Shown here in pieces: positions 28,047-42,395 of a DNA stretch of 64,000 bases; the stretch's first letter is position 1, and every line of letters starts with the position of its first letter. The notes beneath the pieces are model-generated. The model was not told where the DNA came from. It worked only from the letters and a program-made list of their open reading frames with translations, and ran no database searches. This stretch comes from a virus (taxonomy: Duplodnaviria > Caudoviricetes). The stretch spans positions 12,741 through 76,740 of IMG/VR virus record IMGVR_UViG_3300027991_000080. The stretch is one strand, 5' to 3'. Position numbers and translations under genes: made by a program.

Positions 28047-28123
28047 CGCGCTGCAAGGTACCGCAAACGGTACTTTTGCGGCAAATCGCCACGATTATGC
28101 CGGTCTGAGCTACCTTGTCGGCC

Positions 28124-28438
28124 ATGACGCCCGATGAGCGTATGAAGTGGCGCGAGTTCGAGAGGGAAGCTGACGAGCTCAAGGCTGAAGTACTTGTGAT
28201 GTGGGGGCGGATCCGTCGATTGCAGGACAACATGGCTACGTTCAGCGACGAAACGATCGAACGGGCCAGCCAAACCGCCCTTGAGAAGTATCGCGATGAG
28301 ATGCCAAGCGAGACAAAGCTGTCGATCTCACCTCAGAAGGTGCGTCTACTCTTCACGAACGGGCGACCGTGGGCCTTCGTGGTCTGCACTGCTCTGATCG
28401 CTATCGTGGTGCTCGCCTGGATCCTTCGGCCCAGGTGA
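28124..28438 (+). CDS. Coiled-coil protein with C-terminal TM
   Basis: WAFVVCTALIAIVVLAWILRPR tail. Confidence 0.65.
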   Translation: MTPDERMKWREFEREADELKAEVLVMWGRIRRLQDNMATFSDETIERASQTALEKYRDEMPSETKLSISPQKVRLLFTNGRPWAFVVCTALIAIVVLAWILRPR

Positions 28439-28574: not shown

Positions 28575-29084
28575 TTAGGCACGACGAGGAACGTAGTAGA
28601 CGACCAGCGCGCCAGCAACGATGGCGAGCACTGCGCCGGTGATCCATGTGGTGGTCTTCGCGGTTTGCTTGATTCCCTCGAGCTCTTGCTCGATCTGCGT
28701 CGGGATCGACGGAACCGGATCTGGACGCTGTCCGGTATCGCTTGAGCTGGTCACGTTCTGTCCGGCGACGGTAGGAAATCCAGGACCGTTCCACGGTGTC
28801 GGCGCGGACACCTCGAACAGGTACCAGTCCCGCGGCGGGTCTGAGTCGTAGTGCTCGGTGGTTCGCACTGCGACCGTGGGCTTGTTCGATGAGAGCCACG
28901 CTCCGAACGCATCCGAGTCCTTGGCGAACACGTCGACCCAGTACTTACCGGCTGGAAGCGGGTTGTGGCGTTCGACTTTGCCGAGACCCATCCCGAGACG
29001 GATCACTCGATGACCGTTGAGATAGATCCCCTCAGGACGAATCACGGGACACGCGCCCAGGAAAGCGGTTTCTTCGCCGATCAT
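28575..29084 (-). CDS. Tail-anchored membrane protein
   Basis: C-terminal WITGAVLAIVAGALVVYYVPRRA. Confidence 0.7.
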   Translation of the reverse strand: MIGEETAFLGACPVIRPEGIYLNGHRVIRLGMGLGKVERHNPLPAGKYWVDVFAKDSDAFGAWLSSNKPTVAVRTTEHYDSDPPRDWYLFEVSAPTPWNGPGFPTVAGQNVTSSSDTGQRPDPVPSIPTQIEQELEGIKQTAKTTTWITGAVLAIVAGALVVYYVPRRA

Positions 29085-29485
29085 GATCTCGCGTGCCAGT
29101 TGGATAGAGTAACAACGATCCCGATGAAGAGGCTTGCCGCAGTCAGAACGGCGATGGTCTTTCCGAGACTGTCAGCGTTGCTCGACGCCGCGAGCGCACT
29201 TTGCGGCAGGTAGACAGCCGCTGCATGGTAGCAGCCTTGATTCCCTGTGGAGGCCTGCCACATGTGGGGCTCGACGCGAATGAGCGCGGTGACCCCCGGG
29301 AGTGGGTAACTCTCCGTTGTGCCGAGCGGCACGGAGATGTCGTTTGATAGCGCGAGCGCGCGCTGGGCTACTGCTTCCGGAATAGGGCCGTCGCCGGCGC
29401 TCCAGGCTCTCCAACCGTTGGGAGGCTCGAGGCGCGGACATTGCGCAGCGAGCTCTGTACCAGCGCCGTATTGCGCCATTTCCAA
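29081..29485 (-). CDS. Tail-anchored membrane protein
   Basis: C-terminal TIAVLTAASLFIGIVVTL. Confidence 0.7.
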   Translation of the reverse strand: MEMAQYGAGTELAAQCPRLEPPNGWRAWSAGDGPIPEAVAQRALALSNDISVPLGTTESYPLPGVTALIRVEPHMWQASTGNQGCYHAAAVYLPQSALAASSNADSLGKTIAVLTAASLFIGIVVTLSNWHARS

Positions 29486-33557: not shown

Positions 33558-34640
33558 GTGCTTTACCATGTACGACCTGGCGACAGTCCGGCGAGTATCG
33601 CGGCACGGGATGACATGGCCGGGTGTCCGAAGTGCGCGATCGATCTGATTCGAGCGAATCCGCACAAGCCAGTAGTGAGGCACCAGAACGGTTTTGTGAC
33701 GTTCGCGTCGCTTGTTCCGGGGGAGGTGCTCAAGATCCCCGAGAAGTGGCACAACGGCGAGCTCGACACGCGCCCTCGCGCATACTTCGCGGCGCTTCCG
33801 TACACGGATGGCGTGACACCGTCTTCATTGGGCCTCGCCGCCGCTGGTGTGCTGAATGACTACGCCGATCTTGATACGGCAACCATTCTCATCGGCACTC
33901 TGGCAACGATCGACGATCCGTCTTTCGTACAGATGGTCCCGGAGGCGACTGCACTCATTGACGGATCTGTGGCAACTGCTGACTCGAGCTCGAATCCAGT
34001 TGCTGTCGCGCGCGCGAAAGATGTACACGCGGCTACGGCCGCCGCGAGGGCCAGTGCCGCCGTCATGGCCGCAGCCCTCGCCGCGGGCGACCAATCGGCG
34101 GCGATGGGAGCTCGACTCGCTGCGCAGAACTCTCTGTCTGCGGCGATTGGTAGCGTGCGATTGGCTTTGCAGGCGGCGTACTCCGGGGAACCCGCAGCAA
34201 CGATGCCTTCCACTCTTCCCCAGATCCCTCCAGCGGTGCTTGCTGCTGCCCAAGCTGCTGCAGCAGCGATCAAAACAGATCCGAATTACTGCGCAAATAT
34301 CGGCAACGCAGGCAGCGCCGTCAACGCTGCCGTGCATGCCTTCAAAACGGCCTGGAACGCCACTCAGACTCCAAAAATTCCGGTCAACACGGGCAACTAC
34401 GAACAAGAGACAGCGGAAATTCTGGCGGACGTTCTCGGGGGCGCTCCGTTGCCGTGCGATCCGGTCGAGATCACTCCAACTCCGACTGCGCCAAAGCCGC
34501 CTCCTTATTCTCCGCCTCCATTCGTGGCATCGAATGCGCCGAGCGGCGAAAAGATCAGCACAGGCTCCGTCACTTTGATCGCTCTACTGGCCGCAAGCGC
34601 CGCTGGTGGCGCCTACTACCTCGTGAAACAACGCACATGA
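33558..34640 (+). CDS. LysM-like domain protein with C-terminal KISTG-TM anchor
   Basis: YHVRPGDSPASIA...LIRANP...LVPGEVLKIP; ends GEKISTGSVTLIALLAASAAGGAYYLVKQRT. Confidence 0.8.
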   Translation: MLYHVRPGDSPASIAARDDMAGCPKCAIDLIRANPHKPVVRHQNGFVTFASLVPGEVLKIPEKWHNGELDTRPRAYFAALPYTDGVTPSSLGLAAAGVLNDYADLDTATILIGTLATIDDPSFVQMVPEATALIDGSVATADSSSNPVAVARAKDVHAATAAARASAAVMAAALAAGDQSAAMGARLAAQNSLSAAIGSVRLALQAAYSGEPAATMPSTLPQIPPAVLAAAQAAAAAIKTDPNYCANIGNAGSAVNAAVHAFKTAWNATQTPKIPVNTGNYEQETAEILADVLGGAPLPCDPVEITPTPTAPKPPPYSPPPFVASNAPSGEKISTGSVTLIALLAASAAGGAYYLVKQRT

Positions 34641-35287
34641 TCGACAGACCCATCGACGGAGTTCAAACAGACCAACGGGTGCACCCTGCCGGAAAGAAGG
34701 GGGCTACGGTTTCTCTGCGCGAGGTTGCCGAGCGAGCATGGAAAGCCCGCATGAGTCCGCGCCTGCGCGCGTGGGTTACTCAGGAGCTCGACAAGGCCAA
34801 GATGGTAAACGGAACGCATCGACAAAAGGGTCAGGTGATCCTGGATGCGTTTCGAAAAAAGGTTCCGTACGTCGCCGATCCTGTGATGGGCGAGTTCATG
34901 GCAAAGCCGGAACAGGTACTCTGTCTCGACGAGGGTGGTCTTTGTATCGTCGGAGCAGACTGCGACGAAGTGTCAATCACGCTTGCCGCAGCAATGATGT
35001 CGATCGGAATCGACGCGATGATCATTGGTTCGAGTCATCGAGAACCCTACGACACGCCGACCCACGTGTTCATGGCGTTCAAAGACGAGCTCGACAAATG
35101 GGTGAAAATGGACGGCACGACGAAGCTTCCAGCAGGGAAGACTCCTCCTCACATGCGCGAGTTTTGGTACGAGCCTGGTGAGCAGGCGAAGGACAGCGGT
35201 GAGGGGGATTTCGTCGGCATGAGCGGTCCTGGAACTCTCAGCGGACCTCCACAACGATTCGATCTGCGGTATCCGGGAATACGGTAG
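34637..35287 (+). CDS. Transglutaminase-like (papain-fold) Cys protease
   Basis: GADCDEVSITLAAAMMSIG (Cys), THVF (His), MDGT (Asp) triad pattern. Confidence 0.75.
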   Translation: MIDRPIDGVQTDQRVHPAGKKGATVSLREVAERAWKARMSPRLRAWVTQELDKAKMVNGTHRQKGQVILDAFRKKVPYVADPVMGEFMAKPEQVLCLDEGGLCIVGADCDEVSITLAAAMMSIGIDAMIIGSSHREPYDTPTHVFMAFKDELDKWVKMDGTTKLPAGKTPPHMREFWYEPGEQAKDSGEGDFVGMSGPGTLSGPPQRFDLRYPGIR

Positions 35288-35674
35288 TAAGGCGATCGTT
35301 GTACGATCGTATGTCGCGTGTGTCACACGGTACGTGAATCTTTTGGCCTAATTTTGGCCTCAATTCACGGTGTAGGTGTATCGCGCCAGATTCTCGTAAC
35401 TATTTGTTGTTACTTGAGTTTAGTGGCGTATCTGCGCAGTGCTCGAGGCGTATAGCTGTGCACTATTTCGGGATCTGTCAACGGTCATGCGTTGGGCTTG
35501 TATTGACTCGTGAGATCCGAATTTGAAAGGATTGCTAACTGTAACCCCCGTGACATGGGCCTTTACGACGATCGGTTGGCGGATCTCGAAGAGAAGCGAC
35601 GCGGAGTTGCTAGCTCGAGGCCACGGAACCAAATGGGGAGTCGTTACGCCCGGGTAATCCGTCCAGAGGAAAGC

Positions 35675-37000
35675 ATGGCAAAGACCAAAGAAGCTCGCCG
35701 CCGCAAGAAGCGCTCCACCAAGAAGTCGAGCAAGGGTCGCCGTCGTCGGCGAGTTCGTGCTGCAGTCGCAGCTCCTCGGCGTCGCAAGCGGAGGGCGCGC
35801 AAGGTTCGCGCCCGTAGGAAGCGGGCAATGGTCATGGAGGCACCGAAGCGTCGTCGTCGGCGCCGCAAGGTGCGCGCTGTTCAAGCGTGGCACGGAAATC
35901 CGGCCGGCCATCGTCGGGCCGCCAAGAAGGGCCACGCGCGTCGTCGTCGCAAGAGCGGTCGTCGTCGGTCGCGCAGGACGCGCGAGATGCGCGAGACGAT
36001 GGTGATGGCGCCTCGCCGGCGTCGTCGGCGTCGCAAGATGCGAGCGAGCGTCGTGAAGTCGTCGCGTCGTCGCCGGAGTCGTCGGATGCGTTCGAGCATC
36101 ATGCGCGCCGGTCGCGGCGGGTCGATGGGAGCCGCGGAGCTGATGCTGGCGGTGTTCTCCGGTGGCATCGGGTTCGTGGTCGCGGACGGCGTGGATCGCC
36201 TGCTCGCGACGTACAACCCCGCGGGCACCGAAGCGCCGAAGGACAAGTTCACGTCGAGCGGTGCCGGCACTCTTGCCAACACCCTCAACGTGGCGGCGAA
36301 GCCGAACGTCATGCGCATCGGTGCCGGCGTCGGTATGACGGCGGTCCCTGCGTTCGCGTCGATGTACGTGCGGAACCCGTACATGCGTGCCTCGCTCGAG
36401 GGTATCACCGTCGGTGCGGGAGTCTCGCTCTTCAAGACGCTGTGGAACAACCTGCTCATGCCGCTTCTGTTGCCGAAGGACCAGAGCGTTCCCTCGTTGC
36501 AGAAGAACGTGATCGCCCGCCTGTACCCTGCGGAGGTGGCTGCGGCCATCAACCTCAAGCAGGGCGCGATGTCGGGTCCGGGTGCGCTGTCTGGCGCTCC
36601 TCAGCAGCTCGGCATGGGAGCTCCGGACGTTGGTCCGTTCGCGCTCGCTGGCGACTCGCCGTATCCGGACGCTGCTCAGGCGCTTCGGGCACAGGCCGGC
36701 GTGCACGATCAGTTCCCCTCCGTGCAGAACGTTTGGGGAACAGGTGGGCCCGGGAGCGATTACCCGACAGCGGCTCAGGTGATCGCGCGCAACGCCGGCA
36801 TGGCGGGTCCGGCCGGTCACGGCAACCCAGGTCAACCGGGCCTGAGCTGGACGCCTGGCCCTCCGTCGGACATCGGTCCCGGACCGCAAGCGGCCCCTCA
36901 CAAGGATCCGTCGTGCGGGTGCATCGGGGAGAACAACCGGTTCCTCGGATTCATCGGCGACAAGCAAGAAGAGGATCAGCTCTTCGTGATCAAGAGCTGA
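35675..37000 (+). CDS. Protamine-like Arg-rich protein fused to hydrophobic segments (core/DNA-condensing candidate)
   Basis: GAGGA RBS then MAKTKEARRRKKR...; ~145 aa dominated by R/K runs, then Gly/Ala-rich hydrophobic helices. Confidence 0.85.
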   Translation: MAKTKEARRRKKRSTKKSSKGRRRRRVRAAVAAPRRRKRRARKVRARRKRAMVMEAPKRRRRRRKVRAVQAWHGNPAGHRRAAKKGHARRRRKSGRRRSRRTREMRETMVMAPRRRRRRRKMRASVVKSSRRRRSRRMRSSIMRAGRGGSMGAAELMLAVFSGGIGFVVADGVDRLLATYNPAGTEAPKDKFTSSGAGTLANTLNVAAKPNVMRIGAGVGMTAVPAFASMYVRNPYMRASLEGITVGAGVSLFKTLWNNLLMPLLLPKDQSVPSLQKNVIARLYPAEVAAAINLKQGAMSGPGALSGAPQQLGMGAPDVGPFALAGDSPYPDAAQALRAQAGVHDQFPSVQNVWGTGGPGSDYPTAAQVIARNAGMAGPAGHGNPGQPGLSWTPGPPSDIGPGPQAAPHKDPSCGCIGENNRFLGFIGDKQEEDQLFVIKS

Positions 37001-37016
37001 TCGACACACAACAATC

Positions 37017-37039
37017 GCGCCGCGGATAGTCCGCGGCGC
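37017..37039 (+). other. GC-rich hairpin upstream of capsid candidate
   Basis: GCGCCGCGGA-TAG-TCCGCGGCGC. Confidence 0.6.
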
Positions 37040-37105
37040 AAAGTCAACAAAGAATCGGAAAAAGCTCGCGGCGGACCAGGAAACGGCGAGCAACGGAGAC
37101 GGAAC

Positions 37106-38437
37106 ATGGCAGCAATGAGCAAGGTGAAGGAAACGGCGATTCTCGGGAAGCGCAACTCGAGGTTCGGTGACTCGCGCGACGTGAAGCGCGTTCAGTTCGG
37201 TCTCGGTGAGTCGCCGGGAACGGTTGGGGCTGGCGAGAAGTGCTTGCGCTGCTCGTTCGGCAACATCCCCGTGATCGAAGAGGTCGTGTGGACGATTCCT
37301 CTCCCGCTCACGGCGGACGAGGCTCTTTCGACCCTCGGTGACACGGTGAACCTTCTCTCGGGTTCCTCGAGCGTGCCCGGAGTGGCGTCGATCGACTCGA
37401 CGTTCCTCATCAACGGCATTCTCCAGACGGACATCCTTGCTCAGGGTATCGGTGTGCACGTGTTCCATGAGCCGATGAGCTTCTCAACGATCGGCAACTC
37501 GTTCGCGGCTCCCGATGCGAGCGCGACTCCCCCTCCGTCTCCGGACGTGTGGACCGACAACGATCTGTTCAACGGTGCGCTCGGTGGACAGTTCGCTGGA
37601 GCGAGCCCCACCGCGGACACTGCCCCAGCTCCGGCGGTGTTCGAGTTCGGTGTCGACGTCTGGCGTGCAGGCTGGAACTTCATCAACGCCTACCAGTTCC
37701 AGTGGAAGACGTCGCAGCGCGAACTCGTGTTGAACGAGCTCGCTGCAGACGTCTCCTACTTCGGTTCGTTCGCGGACGCAGAAGCGGCAGGAACGAGCGA
37801 GGTAGCGATCGCGGAGTTCGTGGCCGCCGTCAACGCGACGTACCGCTCGAAGGGTTCGAATACGGTGTTCCTCCCGGCGAACTTCCGCCGCGTGGGCAGC
37901 GTGAACAGCACGTCGGCGACGAGCAACGTCGGCGTGTTCCACCCGACGAGGGACTTCGACCTCGCTCCGGTGACCTGGGGTGGTCTCCGGTGGCAGGGGT
38001 ACGGCTGCCGCGGGCAGATGTATCGGCAGGTCGAGAGCCCGTGCTTCCTCGAGCGCGGGATCCCTATCGGCATGCAGTTCATCGTCCAGGACGCCGTGCA
38101 CCAGGCGCTCATGCTCCAGGCCGTCACGATCAACAACGGCGCGCTCGGTTCGAACGTTTCTCCGGACGAGAACTTCACCTGCTTCACCCAGGTAGGCGGA
38201 GCGGCCGGGCAAGGCGTTCCGACCGCTGGAGCGATCGCTTCCGGCGCGAACAACGTCATGCTGGAGCAGACTCTCGACGCGACTCCGGTGCTCATCCAGC
38301 AGTCGGTCAACCAGTGCCGTCAGATCTACAAGGGCGGCATCCTCAAGCTCGCGATCAAGATCAAGGGCTGGGAAATGCCGGGCGGTTGGAAGGCGTGGTG
38401 CGAGAGCACCGGCGTCATCGGGCCGTCGAAGGGCTGA
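37106..38437 (+). CDS. Candidate major capsid protein (beta-rich, jelly-roll-like)
   Basis: Position after core protein, own terminator; alternating beta pattern (AQGIGVHV, PCFLERGIPIGMQF, LKLAIKIKGW). Confidence 0.55.
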   Translation: MAAMSKVKETAILGKRNSRFGDSRDVKRVQFGLGESPGTVGAGEKCLRCSFGNIPVIEEVVWTIPLPLTADEALSTLGDTVNLLSGSSSVPGVASIDSTFLINGILQTDILAQGIGVHVFHEPMSFSTIGNSFAAPDASATPPPSPDVWTDNDLFNGALGGQFAGASPTADTAPAPAVFEFGVDVWRAGWNFINAYQFQWKTSQRELVLNELAADVSYFGSFADAEAAGTSEVAIAEFVAAVNATYRSKGSNTVFLPANFRRVGSVNSTSATSNVGVFHPTRDFDLAPVTWGGLRWQGYGCRGQMYRQVESPCFLERGIPIGMQFIVQDAVHQALMLQAVTINNGALGSNVSPDENFTCFTQVGGAAGQGVPTAGAIASGANNVMLEQTLDATPVLIQQSVNQCRQIYKGGILKLAIKIKGWEMPGGWKAWCESTGVIGPSKG

Positions 38438-38458
38438 TTCGTAGTCCCCCGTAAAGAC

Positions 38459-38501
38459 ACGAGCGGCGTGGCGGATAGCGTCGCGCCGCTCGTTTCGTTT
38501 T
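38459..38501 (+). terminator. Rho-independent terminator
   Basis: 15-bp stem ACGAGCGGCGTGGCG/CGTCGCGCCGCTCGT (2 G-U pairs), GATAG loop, TTCGTTTT tail. Confidence 0.75.
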
Positions 38502-38526
38502 CAGGCATCTAGAAGGAGTTCCGCGC

Positions 38527-39132
38527 ATGCAGCCCCGTGACCACGATGTGAAAAACCTCGCCCTGTACGCGCCGCGGGTCGCGTACGCAATGGTCGTCGG
38601 CGTTCCCCGCGTACCAGTCGTGCTCGACATTCCGATCCAGTTCTCCTCGAGCACCGTCAATGCTCCGCCGGTTGTGCAGAGCTTTCAGAACAACCTGACA
38701 CAGGACACGCTGATCGAGCGCGTCTCGTACGCTCTGTCGCAGCCGAACAGTTTTCCCGGATCGCCGTTCCAGAGCCTCTACTTCAACCAGCTCAAGCAGA
38801 GCGGGCGCACCGGAATCGGAATTCGAATGGACGTGTACGGCGGTCCAAAATACGCCATCAACGATTCGTTCACCGATCTCGGTAACCTCGCCGACGTGTT
38901 CGCTGTGACGTGGCCTCAGGGATGGCCGCTCTACAAGCAGAGCAACGTCAAGGTCGCCGCGATTCTCACCGACACCCCGACTAGCGTTCCGTACAGCGCA
39001 ACGATCTCGTTTCTCGGGTGGCAGTTCAACGACAAAACGATCGACGACATGTCCGATCAGGACGCTCGTGCCGCTCTCCGAAAGATCGGGATCGACACGC
39101 CCGATCTGATGAACCTGCTCCCGCAGAGATGA
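38527..39132 (+). CDS. Candidate small capsid protein (single jelly-roll-like)
   Basis: Beta pattern DTLIERVSY, IGIRMDV, WPLYKQSNVKV, ATISFLGWQF. Confidence 0.5.
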   Translation: MQPRDHDVKNLALYAPRVAYAMVVGVPRVPVVLDIPIQFSSSTVNAPPVVQSFQNNLTQDTLIERVSYALSQPNSFPGSPFQSLYFNQLKQSGRTGIGIRMDVYGGPKYAINDSFTDLGNLADVFAVTWPQGWPLYKQSNVKVAAILTDTPTSVPYSATISFLGWQFNDKTIDDMSDQDARAALRKIGIDTPDLMNLLPQR

Positions 39133-40023: not shown

Positions 40024-40271
40024 GTGGAGTGTCCAACGAGGACGGTCGAGACTGGGGCGCTATGGCGAAAGCCGTAGCCATCCCAACGATCTTCGGCGCT
40101 GGCATGGGCGCAGCGATGTCTCTCGTCGCAAAACCTCAGTACCGTAGTCCGATCATCGGAACCGGCGCTGCGTTTGGCGCCCTGATGGGCGTTGCATTCG
40201 TCGGAAGCACTGGGCTCTTTCAAGAGAGACCGCGCCAGGTTGGCACCAGCGGTTCACTGAGGTTCCCATGA
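40020..40271 (+). CDS. Small two-TM membrane protein
   Basis: Two Gly/Ala-rich hydrophobic helices; ATGA coupling. Confidence 0.7.
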   Translation: MSGVSNEDGRDWGAMAKAVAIPTIFGAGMGAAMSLVAKPQYRSPIIGTGAAFGALMGVAFVGSTGLFQERPRQVGTSGSLRFP

Positions 40272-40981
40272 CCCCCGCGCAAGCGTACGGACACCCGAGA
40301 TTCATCGACGACGTTGCGACTCAGGGACCTACTGATGAAGGTCTCCGTCGCGCTGACTGCATTCAGCAAGAAAAACTTTCCAGGTACTCAGATTGTTCAA
40401 AAGGAGTGATTCCAATGTGGACCCAGCAGGCACTTTCGACCGTTCGTGGGCAGTCAGCCGGATACGTCGCAGGTGTCGGCGACATGGTCTTGTTTGGCGG
40501 AAGAGGCGCACTCGGATTCGCGCTCGAGGCTGCTGGAGATCCGGAAGTCTGGTCGAAGCTAGGCGCTGCGCAGCAGACGTGGGTCGCAAATACTTTGCGC
40601 AAGCTGAACGACAAGATCGTGTCCACGACGGGAAGCAAGTGCCCAACATGGAACCCCGCTGTCATCACGGCGACGGCCGGATGCTTTCAGGTGTGGTTCA
40701 ACGCGAACTACGGCGGAAAGCTCACTGACGCGAGCGGAAAACCAGTCATGCTGCGCACGGACGGAACCTTCGACCAGCAGACGCTAGACGCGCTCCGTAC
40801 CGTCGTTGCGACGTTCGGAACCACGGATTTCCCGGATCCGTTTCCGGGCACGTCTCTTCCGGGAGAGACTGGCACCGGGGAGAAGAAGCTCTCCACCGGC
40901 GCCATGATCGGTATCGGGGCAGGGGTCGCAGCTGCAATAGGCGGCGGTCTCTACCTCGCCACGCACAAGAAGAAGCGCTGA
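40268..40981 (+). CDS. Protein with C-terminal KKLSTG-TM-KKKR anchor
   Basis: DGTFDQQTLDAL (PG-binding-like); ends GEKKLSTGAMIGIGAGVAAAIGGGLYLATHKKKR. Confidence 0.8.
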   Translation: MTPAQAYGHPRFIDDVATQGPTDEGLRRADCIQQEKLSRYSDCSKGVIPMWTQQALSTVRGQSAGYVAGVGDMVLFGGRGALGFALEAAGDPEVWSKLGAAQQTWVANTLRKLNDKIVSTTGSKCPTWNPAVITATAGCFQVWFNANYGGKLTDASGKPVMLRTDGTFDQQTLDALRTVVATFGTTDFPDPFPGTSLPGETGTGEKKLSTGAMIGIGAGVAAAIGGGLYLATHKKKR

Positions 40982-40994
40982 AAGGGAATTTTCG

Positions 40995-42395
40995 ATGACG
41001 TTGTTTCCGTATCGCGTTCGGCAGGGGGAGTCGCCGGCAATCATCGGTCGCCGGTTCGGCGTTTCTTCGGCCGCAATCGTTGCCGCAAATCCGCACAAGC
41101 CGACCACGATGGTTGCCGGACAGCGCACCTTCCGATCTCTCGGGGTCGGAGAACAACTGAGCGTTCCGATCGGTGTCGGCGCAACGGTTCCGATTGCGGA
41201 TCCGGCTGCTGCTCACGCGACAATCCGCGAGGGTAGCCGAGGACCGGATGTGGCTCTCTGGCAGACCATCATCGGATCAGGTGTCGACGGGATCTTCGGA
41301 CCGAACACGACCGCGAAGACGAAGTCCTGGCAGGCAGGACATGGGCTTGCGGCGGACGGCATTGTCGGTCCCAAGTCGTGGGCAGCGGCGCTCGGTGGCG
41401 CTTTCCCTGCGGCTCCGGCGGCCAGCGCACCGCTTCCCGCGCCGACGGTGACTCCGGTATCGTTGCCGTCTCTGCCTTCCGTGAGCGCTCCTGCTGCGGC
41501 GATGGCGATCGCCACGATCGACCCGTGCTACTCCGGCAACGTCGACATGATCTGCGCGGCGCAGCGTGCGCTCGGAATCACGGTCGACGGAAAGTACGGC
41601 GCAGACACCGCCGCAGCTATCCGTAAGCTGGTTCCGAATGCACCGGCTGGATGCAGTCCACGCCCATCGTGGTGGGCTCCTACCGGGAAGAGCAACTGCG
41701 GAGGCGGCGCCGTTCCGTCGTTGCCGGCCCCCACACCGCTCCCCATGCCGTCGCTACCGCCTCCGGTAGCTACTCCTGTGTCGGTTCCGGCGATGCCTCC
41801 AGTGTCGCTCCCGACGTCGCTTCCCGGAGCGGCACCGGTGCCCATCGCTTTGCAAGCGTTGGCGTCTGCCGATCCGTGCGCTCCGTCCAACTCCGAGCTG
41901 GTTTGCGCGGCGCAGCGCGTGCTCGGTGTGACAGTGGACGGGAAATACGGCAACGACACAGCGAACGCGCTGCGTCATTACGTTCCAAACGCTCCCGCAG
42001 GATGCTCCCCACGACCGTCATGGTGGAGTCCCACCGGATCGAGCAACTGTCGAGGAGCGGCGCCGGCGGTGACGCCATCCGCGCCGAGCGCACCGACGTT
42101 CATTCCGACCCCTGCCCCAGCGGCGCCGATGCCGGTTACGTCGCCTGCTGCTGCTCCTGTCATTCCGGCAGGTCCAGTTCAGCCGACAGTGACCCCTCCC
42201 TCTACTTCCGCGTCAATGACAACGACCGGTGACAAGAAGCTGTCTACCGGTGCCATCGTCGCCGGAGCGCTCGGGGCTGCTGCGCTCGTAGGAGTGATAG
42301 CTGTGGCCACTTCCAAGAAGAAGGGCACGCGACACCATTCTGGCGGGACGCATCACGCCAAGAAGCGAAAGTCCAGCAAGAAAAAGCGAAGGTAG
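40995..42395 (+). CDS. LysM-like + peptidoglycan-binding domain protein with two Cys-rich repeats and KKLSTG-TM anchor
   Basis: YRVRQGESPAII; IREGSRGPDV..WQ..DGIFGPNT..DGIVGPKSW; repeat CAAQR.LG.TVDGKYG..PAGCSPRPSWW.PTG.SNC x2. Confidence 0.88.
   Translation: MTLFPYRVRQGESPAIIGRRFGVSSAAIVAANPHKPTTMVAGQRTFRSLGVGEQLSVPIGVGATVPIADPAAAHATIREGSRGPDVALWQTIIGSGVDGIFGPNTTAKTKSWQAGHGLAADGIVGPKSWAAALGGAFPAAPAASAPLPAPTVTPVSLPSLPSVSAPAAAMAIATIDPCYSGNVDMICAAQRALGITVDGKYGADTAAAIRKLVPNAPAGCSPRPSWWAPTGKSNCGGGAVPSLPAPTPLPMPSLPPPVATPVSVPAMPPVSLPTSLPGAAPVPIALQALASADPCAPSNSELVCAAQRVLGVTVDGKYGNDTANALRHYVPNAPAGCSPRPSWWSPTGSSNCRGAAPAVTPSAPSAPTFIPTPAPAAPMPVTSPAAAPVIPAGPVQPTVTPPSTSASMTTTGDKKLSTGAIVAGALGAAALVGVIAVATSKKKGTRHHSGGTHHAKKRKSSKKKRR

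Follow-up and report, generated by a model that had tools for sequence, protein, structure and literature searches.

To our knowledge, the well-studied dsDNA phages all load a pre-formed shell by an ATP-driven motor. In PRD1 and PM2 (Tectiviridae, Corticoviridae), small hydrophobic proteins accompany an internal membrane lying under an icosahedral shell, and some of them link the two; we know of none, among these membrane proteins, that carries a polycationic arm. The core proteins of adenovirus neutralise and condense a dsDNA genome within an icosahedral, tailless particle; pVII and pre-Mu (pX) are Arg-rich precursors, trimmed by the viral Cys protease (adenain). Disordered, polycationic arms lying inside the particle, conserved in charge but not in sequence, are also featured by capsid proteins such as the hepatitis B core (C-terminal domain) and those of nodaviruses and circoviruses, where assembly around the genome is motor-less. 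Baculovirus P6.9-type protamine-like proteins are under 15 kDa, rich in Arg and Ser, and regulated by phosphorylation; the basic repeat domain of the ascovirus protein P64 condenses DNA in vitro (PMC6163548). In the icosahedral Sulfolobus polyhedral virus 1 (SPV1, Portogloboviridae), a protein shell and an inner lipid layer surround a core of DNA coated by protein, and the space between membrane and shell is bridged by further proteins (PMC8459092). DNA-binding, condensing or nucleoprotein components are not mentioned in a 2019 review of membrane-containing phages (PMC6356626).

The gene described here, from a 77-kb uncultivated bacterial virus found in soil metagenomes, codes for a protein where a polycationic arm is followed by hydrophobic helices, hereafter indicated as the arm protein. 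Its likeness to the adenovirus precursors lies in the highly basic arm (50% R+K, +69) and in the gene for a Cys-His-Asp enzyme, which adjoins here too; yet no sequence relationship to pVII or pre-Mu is found (no Pfam match), and the adenovirus core proteins are soluble and anchor-free, in a virus lacking an internal membrane and provided with a packaging ATPase. With the small, Ser-rich P6.9 class, the arm protein, which is Ser-poor and 441–481 aa long, shares the charge principle only. P64, a virion protein, is similarly large and cationic, and in it tandem basic repeats, able to condense genomic DNA in vitro, are joined to a second, non-basic domain; the ascovirus particle, too, contains lipid internally (PMC6163548), as is proposed for the present virus. 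It contains, however, vs2C-ad motifs (pfam08793) and phosphorylation-regulated Ser/Arg repeats, both absent from the arm protein, which differs further by the N-terminal position of the arm, the fused hydrophobic helices, the V-M-E-A-P-(R)n repeats and the bacterial host. Among prokaryotic viruses, SPV1 is the nearest precedent for DNA condensed by protein within a membrane, a condition here only proposed; but SPV1 is archaeal, of 20 kb, and the nucleocapsid role falls in it to VP1, a separate protein that is no membrane-anchored polycation. The arms of hepatitis B core, nodaviruses and circoviruses, finally, are located within the capsid protein, in viruses whose small genomes consist of RNA or ssDNA, whereas here the arm belongs to a separate hydrophobic protein of a 70–125-kb dsDNA virus.

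The reading proposed for these data is that the arm protein is a virion core/membrane protein, which tethers and neutralises the viral DNA; the chances for and against it appear to us to be balanced. On this reading, the arm protein would be an abundant structural component of a large, tailless bacterial virus.

Gene structure and coding frame

The coordinates of the features, numbered along the window (the whole stretch of DNA analysed, 64,000 nucleotides), are collected in Table 1.

Table 1. Features of the arm-protein locus, in window coordinates.
Feature	Position	Strand	Basis or remarks
216-aa transglutaminase-core-like Cys protease candidate	34637..35287	+	Pfam Transglut_core, E 1.4e-4, 22.5 bits
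Non-coding spacer, 267 bp, 48% GC	35288..35554	.	ORF-free
N-terminal peptide MGLYDDRLADLEEKRR	35555..35602	+	Conserved; probable true start
Linker and remnant GSRYARVIRPEES of a ~65-aa alpha/beta N-domain	35603..35674	+	Alignments
Polycationic arm, aa 41-185 (481-aa form)	35675..36109	+	Composition; V-M-E-A-P-(R)6-7 units
Motif inside arm, QAW-H-G-NPAG-H-RR-AAKKG-H-ARRRRK	35882..35953	+	Family pattern AW-x-G-x4-H-x2-AAKKGW
Gly-rich junction RAGRGGSMG	36104..36130	+	Conserved Met 19 residues ahead of A-D-G-x-D-R
Helix 1, strongest transmembrane candidate	36131..36214	+	Kyte-Doolittle 1.77; 26-residue helix in L001 homologue model
Helix 2, hydrophobic, Gly-rich	36305..36370	+	Kyte-Doolittle 1.26; 20-residue helix in homologue model
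Helix 3, hydrophobic	36392..36472	+	Kyte-Doolittle 1.16; 31-residue helix in homologue model
Amphipathic helices, L-Q-K-x-x-I-A-R-L-Y-P-A-E-V-A-A	36494..36556	+	Conserved; helices 401-436 in homologue model
Pro/Gly-rich, mildly acidic tail	36557..36853	+	D-V-G-P-F-A-L and G-D-S-P-Y-P-D-A-A-Q-A-L-R units; predicted disordered
C-terminal module P-G-P-P-x3-G-P-G-P-Q ... C-G-C-I-G-D-x-N-x-F-L-G-F-I-G-D, then stop	36854..37000	+	Alignments
443-aa major capsid protein candidate	37106..38437	+	Most conserved structural gene

The segment 35675-37000(+) translates to 441 aa, and an earlier note on this DNA had placed the gene start at 35675. The reading frame, however, is open from 35507, and an in-frame ATG at 35555 leads into the peptide MGLYDDRLADLEEKRR, with which full-length relatives, both IMG/VR loci and long database forms, begin alike; among them, its codons differ at third bases, synonymously. 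Since this peptide also begins the full-length relatives, the true protein is probably the 481-aa form (35555-37000), while the ATG at 35675, preceded at -9 by a Shine-Dalgarno-like GAGGA, may act as a second start. A related peptide, x-S-Y-[LV]-x-R-M-R-x-F-R, is found at the N-terminus in a distant clade. In most relatives, the N-terminal peptide is followed by the small alpha/beta domain, which, according to the alignments, has been lost here by an in-frame deletion; in a model of the full-length L001 homologue it spans residues 45-110 (pLDDT 74-92) and weakly resembles RRM, ACT and ferredoxin-like folds. The gene described by the earlier note is real, but the note had overlooked the upstream start, the loss of a domain from this copy, and the conserved Cys protease next to it.

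Codon-position GC favours the frame of the arm protein, with a GC3 of 0.75 overall and 0.87 in the hydrophobic part; a 682-aa antisense ORF (35420-37468) was rejected as a coding frame, its GC3 of 0.65 being lower. Met residues are conserved at domain boundaries, with G-rich or GAGGAG-like sequences upstream. Such sequences are produced anyway by Gly-Gly and Glu-Glu codons, which weakens the case for internal translation starts. About half of the genes of this genome have no Shine-Dalgarno site.

The polycationic arm

The 145 residues of the arm include 56 R and 17 K, 73 in all, for a net charge of +69. Against a mean R+K content of 11.9% in the remaining predicted proteins, at least 73 such residues in 145 aa have a binomial P of ~1e-29, and elsewhere in the genome 145-aa windows reach at most 37. 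The arm protein is the sole strongly cationic member of the virion module (+70, pI 11.9); a basic tag common to the late proteins does not exist in this genome, where short basic tails are carried by three or four proteins only. These counts bear out the earlier description of the first ~145 aa as mostly R/K, and the repeats then quoted are all present: VAAPRRRKRRARKVRA at 35765-35812, MEAPKRRRRRRKVRA at 35834-35878 and VMAPRRRRRRRKMRA at 36002-36046. The arm is poor in Ser, and lacks an S-R or S-P-x-R repeat pattern; at the DNA level, no recent tandem duplication of its units is found in this copy. In the L001 homologue the arm is predicted to be disordered (pLDDT below 50).

Charge is maintained throughout the family: in 50 relatives, the arm has a mean charge of +66 (sd 8) and an R+K fraction of 0.44 (sd 0.03). 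In a more distant tier, made of 214 cluster representatives, R+K content was measured over the 150 aa preceding the hydrophobic domain: it is 21–47% in all 51 tabulated members with an N-terminal extension of at least 60 aa, and 30% or above in 48 of them. Two of them, P0196 (R5/K55) and P0198 (R15/K65), are Lys-rich instead of Arg-rich; given this exchange, charge is the conserved property of the arm, and selection acts on it and not on sequence. A rise of arm charge with genome size (rho 0.66 over 13 genomes) was discarded as evidence, since it vanishes (rho 0.03) on removal of a single clade.

Within the arm, a motif is preserved (AW-x-G-x4-H-x2-AAKKG), in which W, G, H, A, K and G do not vary across 20 sequences. 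It coincides with the only predicted helix of the arm (L001 residues 203-214, pLDDT ~77) and is found also in the distant-clade members P0203 and P0260; its conservation indicates that the basic region is more than pure low complexity.

The hydrophobic domain and the tail

Hydrophobicity was evaluated by the Kyte-Doolittle scale, with a 19-residue window. The Gly-rich hydrophobic segments and the Pro/Gly-rich tail announced by the earlier note are both present, in the order described. As to transmembrane prediction, which the same note had called for, the outcome is strong for helix 1 and only moderate for helices 2 and 3: helix 1, by its score and modelled length, would suffice to cross a bilayer, and is the only one clearly hydrophobic enough for a transmembrane span. 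In the model of the L001 homologue, each of the three has a pLDDT of ~90, and jointly they match three-helix transmembrane units from membrane proteins of known structure, at Z 7-9, a generic range, to be expected of any helical bundle. Structural neighbours in the Atlas are transporter fragments, with TM below 0.4.

Helix 1 ends in the near-invariant A-D-G-x-D-R-L-L-A-T-Y-N-P. The column of the junction Met, upstream of it, holds Met in 103 of 121 aligned sequences, a count inflated by truncated gene calls; gene callers often place the protein start at this junction. R-L-Y-P-x-E is invariant in the amphipathic helices. From the A-D-G-x-D-R motif to the C-terminus, most relatives contain 260-273 aa, and five of six genomes of 116–125 kb contain 455-786 aa; the distance is 273 aa in L018 (111 kb). 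In the C-terminal module both Cys residues (Cys-x-Cys), as well as the G and P residues, are invariant; the module may dock toward the capsid.

Conservation and database searches

The family architecture comprises an N-terminal peptide, a small alpha/beta domain, a disordered basic arm, three hydrophobic helices, a Pro/Gly tail and a Cys-x-Cys end. Arm and hydrophobic domain lie within one ORF in all 22 IMG/VR loci, so that their fusion is no gene-calling accident; the same fusion is found in the distant clade, whose capsid candidate is 42–45% identical. The claimed fusion of the arm to a hydrophobic domain is thus confirmed, and it is ancient. Conservation of the arm protein extends to at least 214 sequence clusters, which derive both from public genomes and from metagenomes.

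None of the searches provided a known relative. No Pfam family at E<=1 was found for the arm protein or five long homologues, and neither PHROGs nor a family-profile search of PDB sequences gave a match to the arm protein. A tblastn search against 50,697 GenBank phage records yielded no homologue. When the homologue model was compared with PDB and BFVD by Foldseek, nothing was found at E<=1e-3, while VIA-align returned only generic helical and small alpha/beta matches. A literature search found no paper on the arm protein. Matches in MAGs are limited to short fragments, labelled Binatia and Polyangiaceae, and no integrated copy was found in a host genome.

Neighbouring genes

Both clades share one gene order: the protease candidate, the arm protein and the capsid candidate, then a 201-aa and a 295-aa gene. 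This is in line with the earlier remark that the arm gene directly precedes the capsid candidate. Several tail-anchored membrane proteins belong to the same module. The spacer upstream of the arm gene includes weak terminator-like hairpins at 35314-35337 and 35478-35495; it is likely to regulate the genes of the arm protein and the capsid candidate, and a promoter would be located there. A strong terminator-like hairpin (38459-38493) is found 3' of the capsid candidate. Farther on, a tRNA-Arg call at 39019-39115(-) was dismissed as a false positive, being reported by ARAGORN only, negative in Rfam, and antisense inside a conserved gene.

The capsid candidate is 66–83% identical in the 22 loci and has the highest GC3 of the genome (0.83). 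It has no Pfam, PHROG or GenBank-phage match, and only one chance-level row (E 1.5) was obtained against PDB, even with a broader profile; the Atlas, likewise, contains no model of it. Its AlphaFold model, from a 19-sequence alignment, is unusable for fold assignment (pLDDT 32).

This fixed context bears on whether the arm protein acts in the particle at all. An anchor joined to a polycation would suit any function exerted on DNA at a membrane, and Arg-rich peptides are generally known to cross membranes; the protein might thus be a tether, anchored in the host membrane, for replicating or incoming viral DNA, or an entry factor whose arm escorts DNA across the host envelope. We consider such non-virion roles very unlikely: the gene holds a fixed place, flanked by a maturation-type enzyme on one side and the capsid candidate on the other, within a co-oriented structural block; its high GC3 is typical of abundant late proteins; and the replication genes sit in the other half of the genome.

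The protease candidate is immediately upstream of the arm gene in 19 of 22 near loci and in 5 of 5 distant ones, and its Cys109, His143 and Asp159 show no variation among 15 sequences taken from the two clades. It might cut the arm protein at unit boundaries, i.e. at V-M-E-A-P before the Arg runs and at the Gly-Gly-x-Met junction, thus freeing protamine-like DNA-condensing peptides; the hydrophobic domain would then only deliver or anchor the precursor. A small motif does recur before Arg runs (of 196 examined, 130 have Ala or Pro at -1), Met is conserved at domain boundaries, and the distant clade features E-N-P before Arg runs and Y-A-[LM]-E-N-P-L-S-G before helix 1. The cleavage sites, on the other hand, are conjectural, and the boundary motifs differ between clades (A-P vs N-P). 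The Pfam score of the enzyme falls just short of the curated Transglut_core cut-off (23 bits), no solved relative was found for it by sequence, and that superfamily includes, besides proteases, transglutaminases with a cross-linking activity. We hold this reading, a variant of the virion core/membrane protein proposed above and not its opposite, to be unlikely; processing of the adenovirus type would be a conjecture by analogy.

Packaging and tailed-phage genes

At the thresholds applied, no Terminase_6N match was found in this genome or in the records of 19 relatives, 13 of which are at least 90% complete. Phage_capsid, Phage_portal and Pox_A32 gave no match in this genome or in four complete relatives, nor did TerL_ATPase or FtsK_SpoIIIE in this genome; a single partial match to DUF87 occurs in one relative only. 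Proteins with a Walker-A motif are confined to the replication half of the genome, and the structural half is devoid of them. The earlier statement that an ATPase is missing thus agrees with the families searched, though a divergent packaging ATPase could have escaped detection. PRD1-like viruses carry a packaging ATPase of the FtsK/HerA or A32 type, and this lineage is set apart from them because none was detected. Near-complete relatives range from 70 to 125 kb. Several complete relatives carry terminal repeats; neither direct nor inverted ones are found in this record.

Divergent structural genes can evade profile searches, internal proteins exist in some tailed phages, and the capsid candidate, given its poor model, might have an HK97 fold. 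The arm protein could then be an internal head or ejection protein of a divergent tailed phage, with the helices acting only in DNA delivery. We hold this to be very unlikely, as the capsid, portal and terminase families searched are not found in this genome and complete relatives, and GenBank phages hold no match to either the arm protein or the capsid candidate. One tail-fibre family (phrog_5073) was matched, but no tail, sheath or tape-measure family is present among the PHROG matches listed (25 of 115 families).

Proposed mechanism

For the virion core/membrane protein that we favour, binding, topology, virion location, processing and assembly are inferred as follows. Helix 1, probably with helices 2 and 3 as a hairpin, would anchor the protein in a lipid bilayer. 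According to the positive-inside rule, strongly basic segments do not leave the cytoplasmic face of the host membrane, and the disordered arm of ~145 aa would be kept on that face. There, it would bind viral DNA non-specifically, by contacts of Arg and Lys with phosphates, and part of the DNA charge would be neutralised. If the chain crosses the membrane once or three times, its Pro/Gly tail and Cys-x-Cys end would emerge on the opposite face, within reach of the shell, so that a single polypeptide would join DNA, membrane and shell. Trimming of the arm protein during maturation may fall to the Cys-His-Asp protease-like enzyme encoded next to it. That the particle is of a membrane-containing type is presumed on indirect evidence.

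For the arm to face DNA inside the particle, the membrane would have to wrap around already bound DNA. Parallels to this route would lie in the way large eukaryotic DNA viruses assemble, and in the SPV1 nucleoprotein core. The tie between DNA and membrane advanced by the earlier note requires such wrap-around assembly, because PRD1-style budding turns the cytoplasmic side toward the capsid; by the PRD1 route, a cytoplasmic arm would face the capsid and not the DNA (PMC6356626). PRD1, moreover, pumps its DNA into a pre-formed vesicle via the ATPase P9, in contrast with the wrapping proposed here.

The positive-inside rule, combined with PRD1 assembly (PMC6356626), is also compatible with a different arrangement, where the arm, turned toward the shell, binds anionic lipid or the acidic faces of capsomers instead of DNA, either gluing shell to membrane or bending the membrane as Arg-rich peptides do. 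Net charges of -9, -1 and -8 indeed make the capsid candidate and the two proteins next to it mildly acidic, and anionic lipids are an alternative polyanionic partner for the arm. A charge of +66 per copy, however, is far beyond what the slightly negative shell proteins could balance, no polyanion of a virion other than DNA matches it in size, and no motor was detected that could fill a closed vesicle; the maintenance of charge density, while sequence and the choice between R and K drift, is in addition typical of nucleic-acid-binding arms. The shell-facing arrangement therefore seems to us quite improbable.

Implications

A protamine-like arm and a membrane anchor, combined in one protein that would most likely hold the viral DNA against a membrane inside the particle, constitute a design not described for phages. 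The arm protein is found in genomes 4–8 times the size of PRD1 or PM2, with no detectable motor, and points to a different solution of encapsidation in bacterial viruses, nearer to that of adenovirus, ascovirus or SPV1. A broader proposal is that a lineage of 70–125-kb bacterial viruses packages dsDNA with no motor: anchored arms would gather and condense the genome at a membrane patch, on its cytoplasmic face, the patch and the shell would together close around the DNA, and a Cys protease would mature the core. Stated in this full form, the proposal is tentative and rather doubtful. If true, it would extend to bacterial viruses an assembly route of which the only examples so far come from large eukaryotic DNA viruses and one archaeal virus. 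The arm protein may serve as a marker gene for this lineage in metagenomes, and provides a concrete handle on the idea of motor-less encapsidation.

Reading frame and start of the arm protein

From the downstream of its two candidate starts, the arm protein is translated into 441 aa; coordinates are collected in the table. Residues 1-145 of this form contain 56 Arg and 17 Lys (50%), with a net charge of +69: the Arg/Lys-rich character attributed by the earlier note to the first ~145 aa is borne out, and the repeats quoted there are found in place. Arg+Lys makes up, on average, 11.9% of the genome's other predicted proteins, and against this background the density of the arm has a binomial P of ~1e-29; elsewhere in the genome, the maximum is 37 Arg+Lys per 145-residue window. 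By codon-position GC, GC3 of the frame is 0.75 overall and 0.87 across the hydrophobic part. Two overlapping ORFs, one antisense (682 aa) and one in an alternative + frame (380 aa), are rejected on codon-position GC and homology: they are by-products of GC-rich, Arg-codon-rich DNA.

The frame is open from 35507, and the upstream ATG encodes MGLYDDRLADLEEKRR at the N-terminus. The full-length ORFs of the IMG/VR loci start with the same peptide, encoded with synonymous differences, and so do long homologues in the databases; being shared and synonymously varied, the peptide indicates that the protein probably starts here and is 481 aa long. A GAGGA is present at -9 of the downstream ATG and no such site at the upstream one, yet both starts are possible, because about half of the genome's genes have no Shine-Dalgarno-like site. 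Public gene calls for the family begin at four different places. Met is conserved at both ATGs and before helix 1, and in the same columns of the near IMG/VR loci (L001-L022); the domain boundaries so marked are possible nested internal starts or cleavage sites.

Features of the arm protein and its surroundings (window positions unless another locus is named)
Feature	Coordinates	Strand	Remark
Arm protein, downstream start	35675-37000	+	441 aa
Arm protein, upstream start	35555-37000	+	481 aa, probable
Conserved Met	35555		before small domain
Conserved Met	35675		before arm
Conserved Met	36125		before helix 1
Small-domain deletion site	35603-35674		
Intact small domain	L001:9545-9745		also in other loci
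Overlapping ORF	35420-37468	-	682 aa, rejected
Overlapping ORF	35887-37029	+	380 aa, rejected
Upstream enzyme	34637-35287	+	216 aa
Capsid candidate	37106-38437	+	443 aa
Terminator-like hairpin	38459-38493	+	15 bp, GC-rich, T-rich tail
tRNA-Arg (TCG) call	39019-39115	-	97 nt, rejected
Tail-anchored protein	28115-28438		
Tail-anchored protein	28575-29084	-	
Tail-anchored protein	29081-29485	-	
Tail-anchored protein	33558-34640		
Tail-anchored protein	40268-40981		
Tail-anchored protein	40995-42395		
DUF87/HerA-like match	G015:C1:15441-15584	-	331-aa ORF

Family and domain architecture

The part following the arm has >277 relatives in a collection of 5.8 billion proteins, none of them informatively named or with a Pfam domain assigned. 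About 70% of the relatives listed are 265-320 aa long and begin immediately ahead of hydrophobic helix 1; the remaining ones (430-680 aa) carry a basic N-terminal extension. In the complete ORFs of the 22 IMG/VR loci, 4 of which are interrupted by a contig end, the frame extends upstream, through an Arg-rich region, to the MGLYDD peptide. The DNA of L001 and L018 also encodes the Arg-rich extension, though their database proteins are short forms. As the frame continues upstream in the DNA, short forms are truncated gene calls, or at most internal-start products.

The architecture comprises an N-terminal peptide; a small domain of ~65 aa; the basic arm; a Gly-rich junction with the conserved Met; three hydrophobic helices, then amphipathic ones; and a Pro/Gly tail with a conserved end (P-G-P-P...C-G-C-I-G-D...F-L-G-F-x-G-D). 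The small domain, which in most relatives features V-Q-S-L-L-F ... G-Y-R-Y-G-K-V-D-V-T-D-Q-Y ... A-V-V-A-R-E-E, is deleted in frame from the window copy, where only its last strand is kept, from L018 and from the database homologue P0037; its loss from these copies indicates that it is dispensable. The tail is enlarged to about 455-790 aa, with Ala/Pro/His-rich inserts, in L008, L012, L014-L017 and L019. Five enlarged-tail homologues sit in genomes of 116-125 kb; L018, from a 111-kb genome (G015), has a short tail. Since the Cys-x-Cys end is retained despite this expansion, the tail behaves as a spacer of adjustable length.

Conservation of arm charge

In 50 arm-bearing relatives the arm is 168 aa long (sd 27), with a net charge of +66 (sd 8) and an Arg+Lys fraction of 0.44 (sd 0.03); a recurring V/M-x-E/A-A-P context precedes the Arg runs. 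When 1.84 billion cluster representatives were screened with a profile built on the hydrophobic domain, 214 clusters reached E<=1e-3, 58 of them E<=1e-30. Distant-tier members with an N-terminal extension of at least 60 aa were tabulated (n=51): just before the hydrophobic domain, Arg+Lys amounts to 21-47% in all 51, and to at least 30% in 48. Two distant-tier members are Lys-rich, not Arg-rich, and two carry the AAKKGW motif of the near loci. In this tier the Arg runs follow E-N-P, helix 1 follows Y-A-[LM]-E-N-P-L-S-G, and the N-terminal peptide is related to that of the near loci. The fusion of arm and hydrophobic domain, as originally noticed, is thus a single ORF in the complete IMG/VR-locus ORFs and recurs in the distant tier. 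The distant basic extensions and the Lys/Arg exchange show that the fusion is old and its charge under selection.

The distant clade (L027-L031, P0179-P0263; contigs of 59-127 kb) uses E-N-P, the window's clade E-A-P and R-G-G-x-M-G. Asn-Pro is a self-cleavage site in some non-enveloped viruses. A correlation of arm charge with genome length (rho 0.66, P 0.014, 13 genomes) was discarded, as rho falls to 0.03 without one clade.

Predicted structure

The structure was predicted for the L001 homologue from a 133-sequence alignment. The small domain is modelled with pLDDT 74-92 and the three helices (26, 20 and 31 residues) with pLDDT ~90; the tail is predicted to be disordered, as is the arm, except for one helix at the conserved AW-x-G-x4-H-x2-AAKKGW motif. 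Foldseek found no match for this model in PDB or BFVD at E<=1e-3. By VIA-align, the three helices superpose on three-helix transmembrane units of transporters, photosystem I PsaL, Fluc and SemiSWEET with Z 7-9, the generic range for helical bundles, and the small domain weakly resembles ACT/ferredoxin/RRM-like folds (Z ~6). Of the membrane domain initially proposed, helix 1 stands by hydropathy as a strong transmembrane candidate by itself, while helices 2 and 3 are weaker.

Gene neighbourhood

In the 22 near loci the arm protein is preceded by genes for 201 aa, 147 aa, a 529-aa Pro-rich protein, 63 aa, 360 aa and the 216-aa enzyme, and followed by genes for 443, 201, 295, 237 and 466 aa. Five distant loci retain the core: enzyme, arm protein, 443 aa (42-45% identical), 201 aa and 295 aa. 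The position directly before the capsid candidate is therefore kept in both sets. Conservation is greatest in the 443-aa protein (66-83%), which also has the highest GC3 (0.83); it is a reasonable capsid candidate. It has no match in PDB, Pfam, PHROG, Atlas or GenBank-phage searches, and its AlphaFold model (pLDDT 32) is unusable for fold. The hairpin 3' of its gene is the sole strong terminator-like site on the + strand within 34400-38700, so that arm-protein and capsid-candidate genes may share a transcript.

The upstream neighbour is, in both clades, always the transglutaminase-core-like enzyme. Its Pfam Transglut_core score is just below the cut-off; Cys109, His143 and Asp159 are invariant across both clades, and an L-C-L-D-E-x-G-L-C motif is conserved. 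Its role may be to cross-link proteins or, as a protease, to mature them. The arm protein (+70, pI 11.9) is the sole strongly charged member of the virion module. In six module proteins the C-terminus is a lone hydrophobic helix (a tail anchor), and two of the six also contain peptidoglycan-binding or LysM-like parts; these proteins may belong to the virion membrane or serve in lysis. ARAGORN calls a tRNA-Arg antisense within the conserved 201-aa structural gene, probably a false positive, as Rfam detects none across the whole window.

Virus type, packaging genes and host

The window belongs to a 76,740-bp IMG/VR virus that is classed as a provirus and estimated by CheckV to be 95% complete. 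Thirteen relatives at least 90% complete measure 70-125 kb, 6 of them with direct terminal repeats; Terminase_6N is absent from all 13. TerL_ATPase and FtsK_SpoIIIE were not found in the window's genome, nor Pox_A32, Phage_capsid and Phage_portal in this genome and four complete relatives. Walker-A proteins are confined to the replication half, which is phage-like (prim-pol, helicases, Sak4-like protein, ThyX, ParB, integrase). Among the families searched, no packaging ATPase was detected in the window's genome, in line with the earlier note. A partial DUF87/HerA-like P-loop match (E 4.7e-8) occurs in one relative only, G015, and none in the window's genome and three complete relatives; the matching ORF is a possible divergent ATPase. 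The presence of peptidoglycan-binding and lysozyme domains suggests that the host is a bacterium. The virus sequence is present in many soil metagenomes; among genomes, only MAG fragments matched.

DNA, membrane and shell

The principle that the arm protein would share with adenovirus pVII/Mu, baculovirus P6.9, ascovirus P64 and small-virus capsid arms is that of a disordered polycation neutralising nucleic acid. The basic repeat domain of P64 condenses DNA in vitro by itself (PMC6163548). Compared with these proteins, the covalent hydrophobic anchor is the new element. By the positive-inside rule for membrane proteins, the +69 arm could not cross the host membrane: it would remain on the cytoplasmic side, where viral DNA lies, with the tail opposite if there are one or three spans.

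In PRD1, the vesicle arises as part of the cytoplasmic membrane pinches off inward; shell proteins assemble on it, and the ATPase P9 then pumps DNA in (PMC6356626). Such a geometry would turn a cytoplasmic arm toward the shell, not the DNA, and in a rival reading the arm is a glue between shell and lipid; the shell proteins, however, are just mildly acidic. For this reason, and because DNA is the only size-matched polyanion, the favoured reading is that the membrane would close around DNA already bound to arms. By rough arithmetic, a 76.7-kb genome carries ~153,000 phosphate charges, of which several hundred to a thousand arms at +69 (assumed copy numbers) would neutralise about a quarter to a half. 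A role as DNA-to-membrane tether is given about an even chance. By analogy with adenovirus, the arm protein may mature by proteolysis, as suggested by its constant Cys-His-Asp neighbour, by the boundary motifs that recur and by the conserved Met or Gly-Gly junctions.

No paper on the arm protein or its virus lineage was found in the literature and no homologue among GenBank phages; in a 2019 review of phages with membranes, nothing is said of any DNA-binding, condensing or nucleoprotein component (PMC6356626). By class, the arm protein would fall among the viral genome-condensing basic proteins and, by analogy with them, condense DNA.
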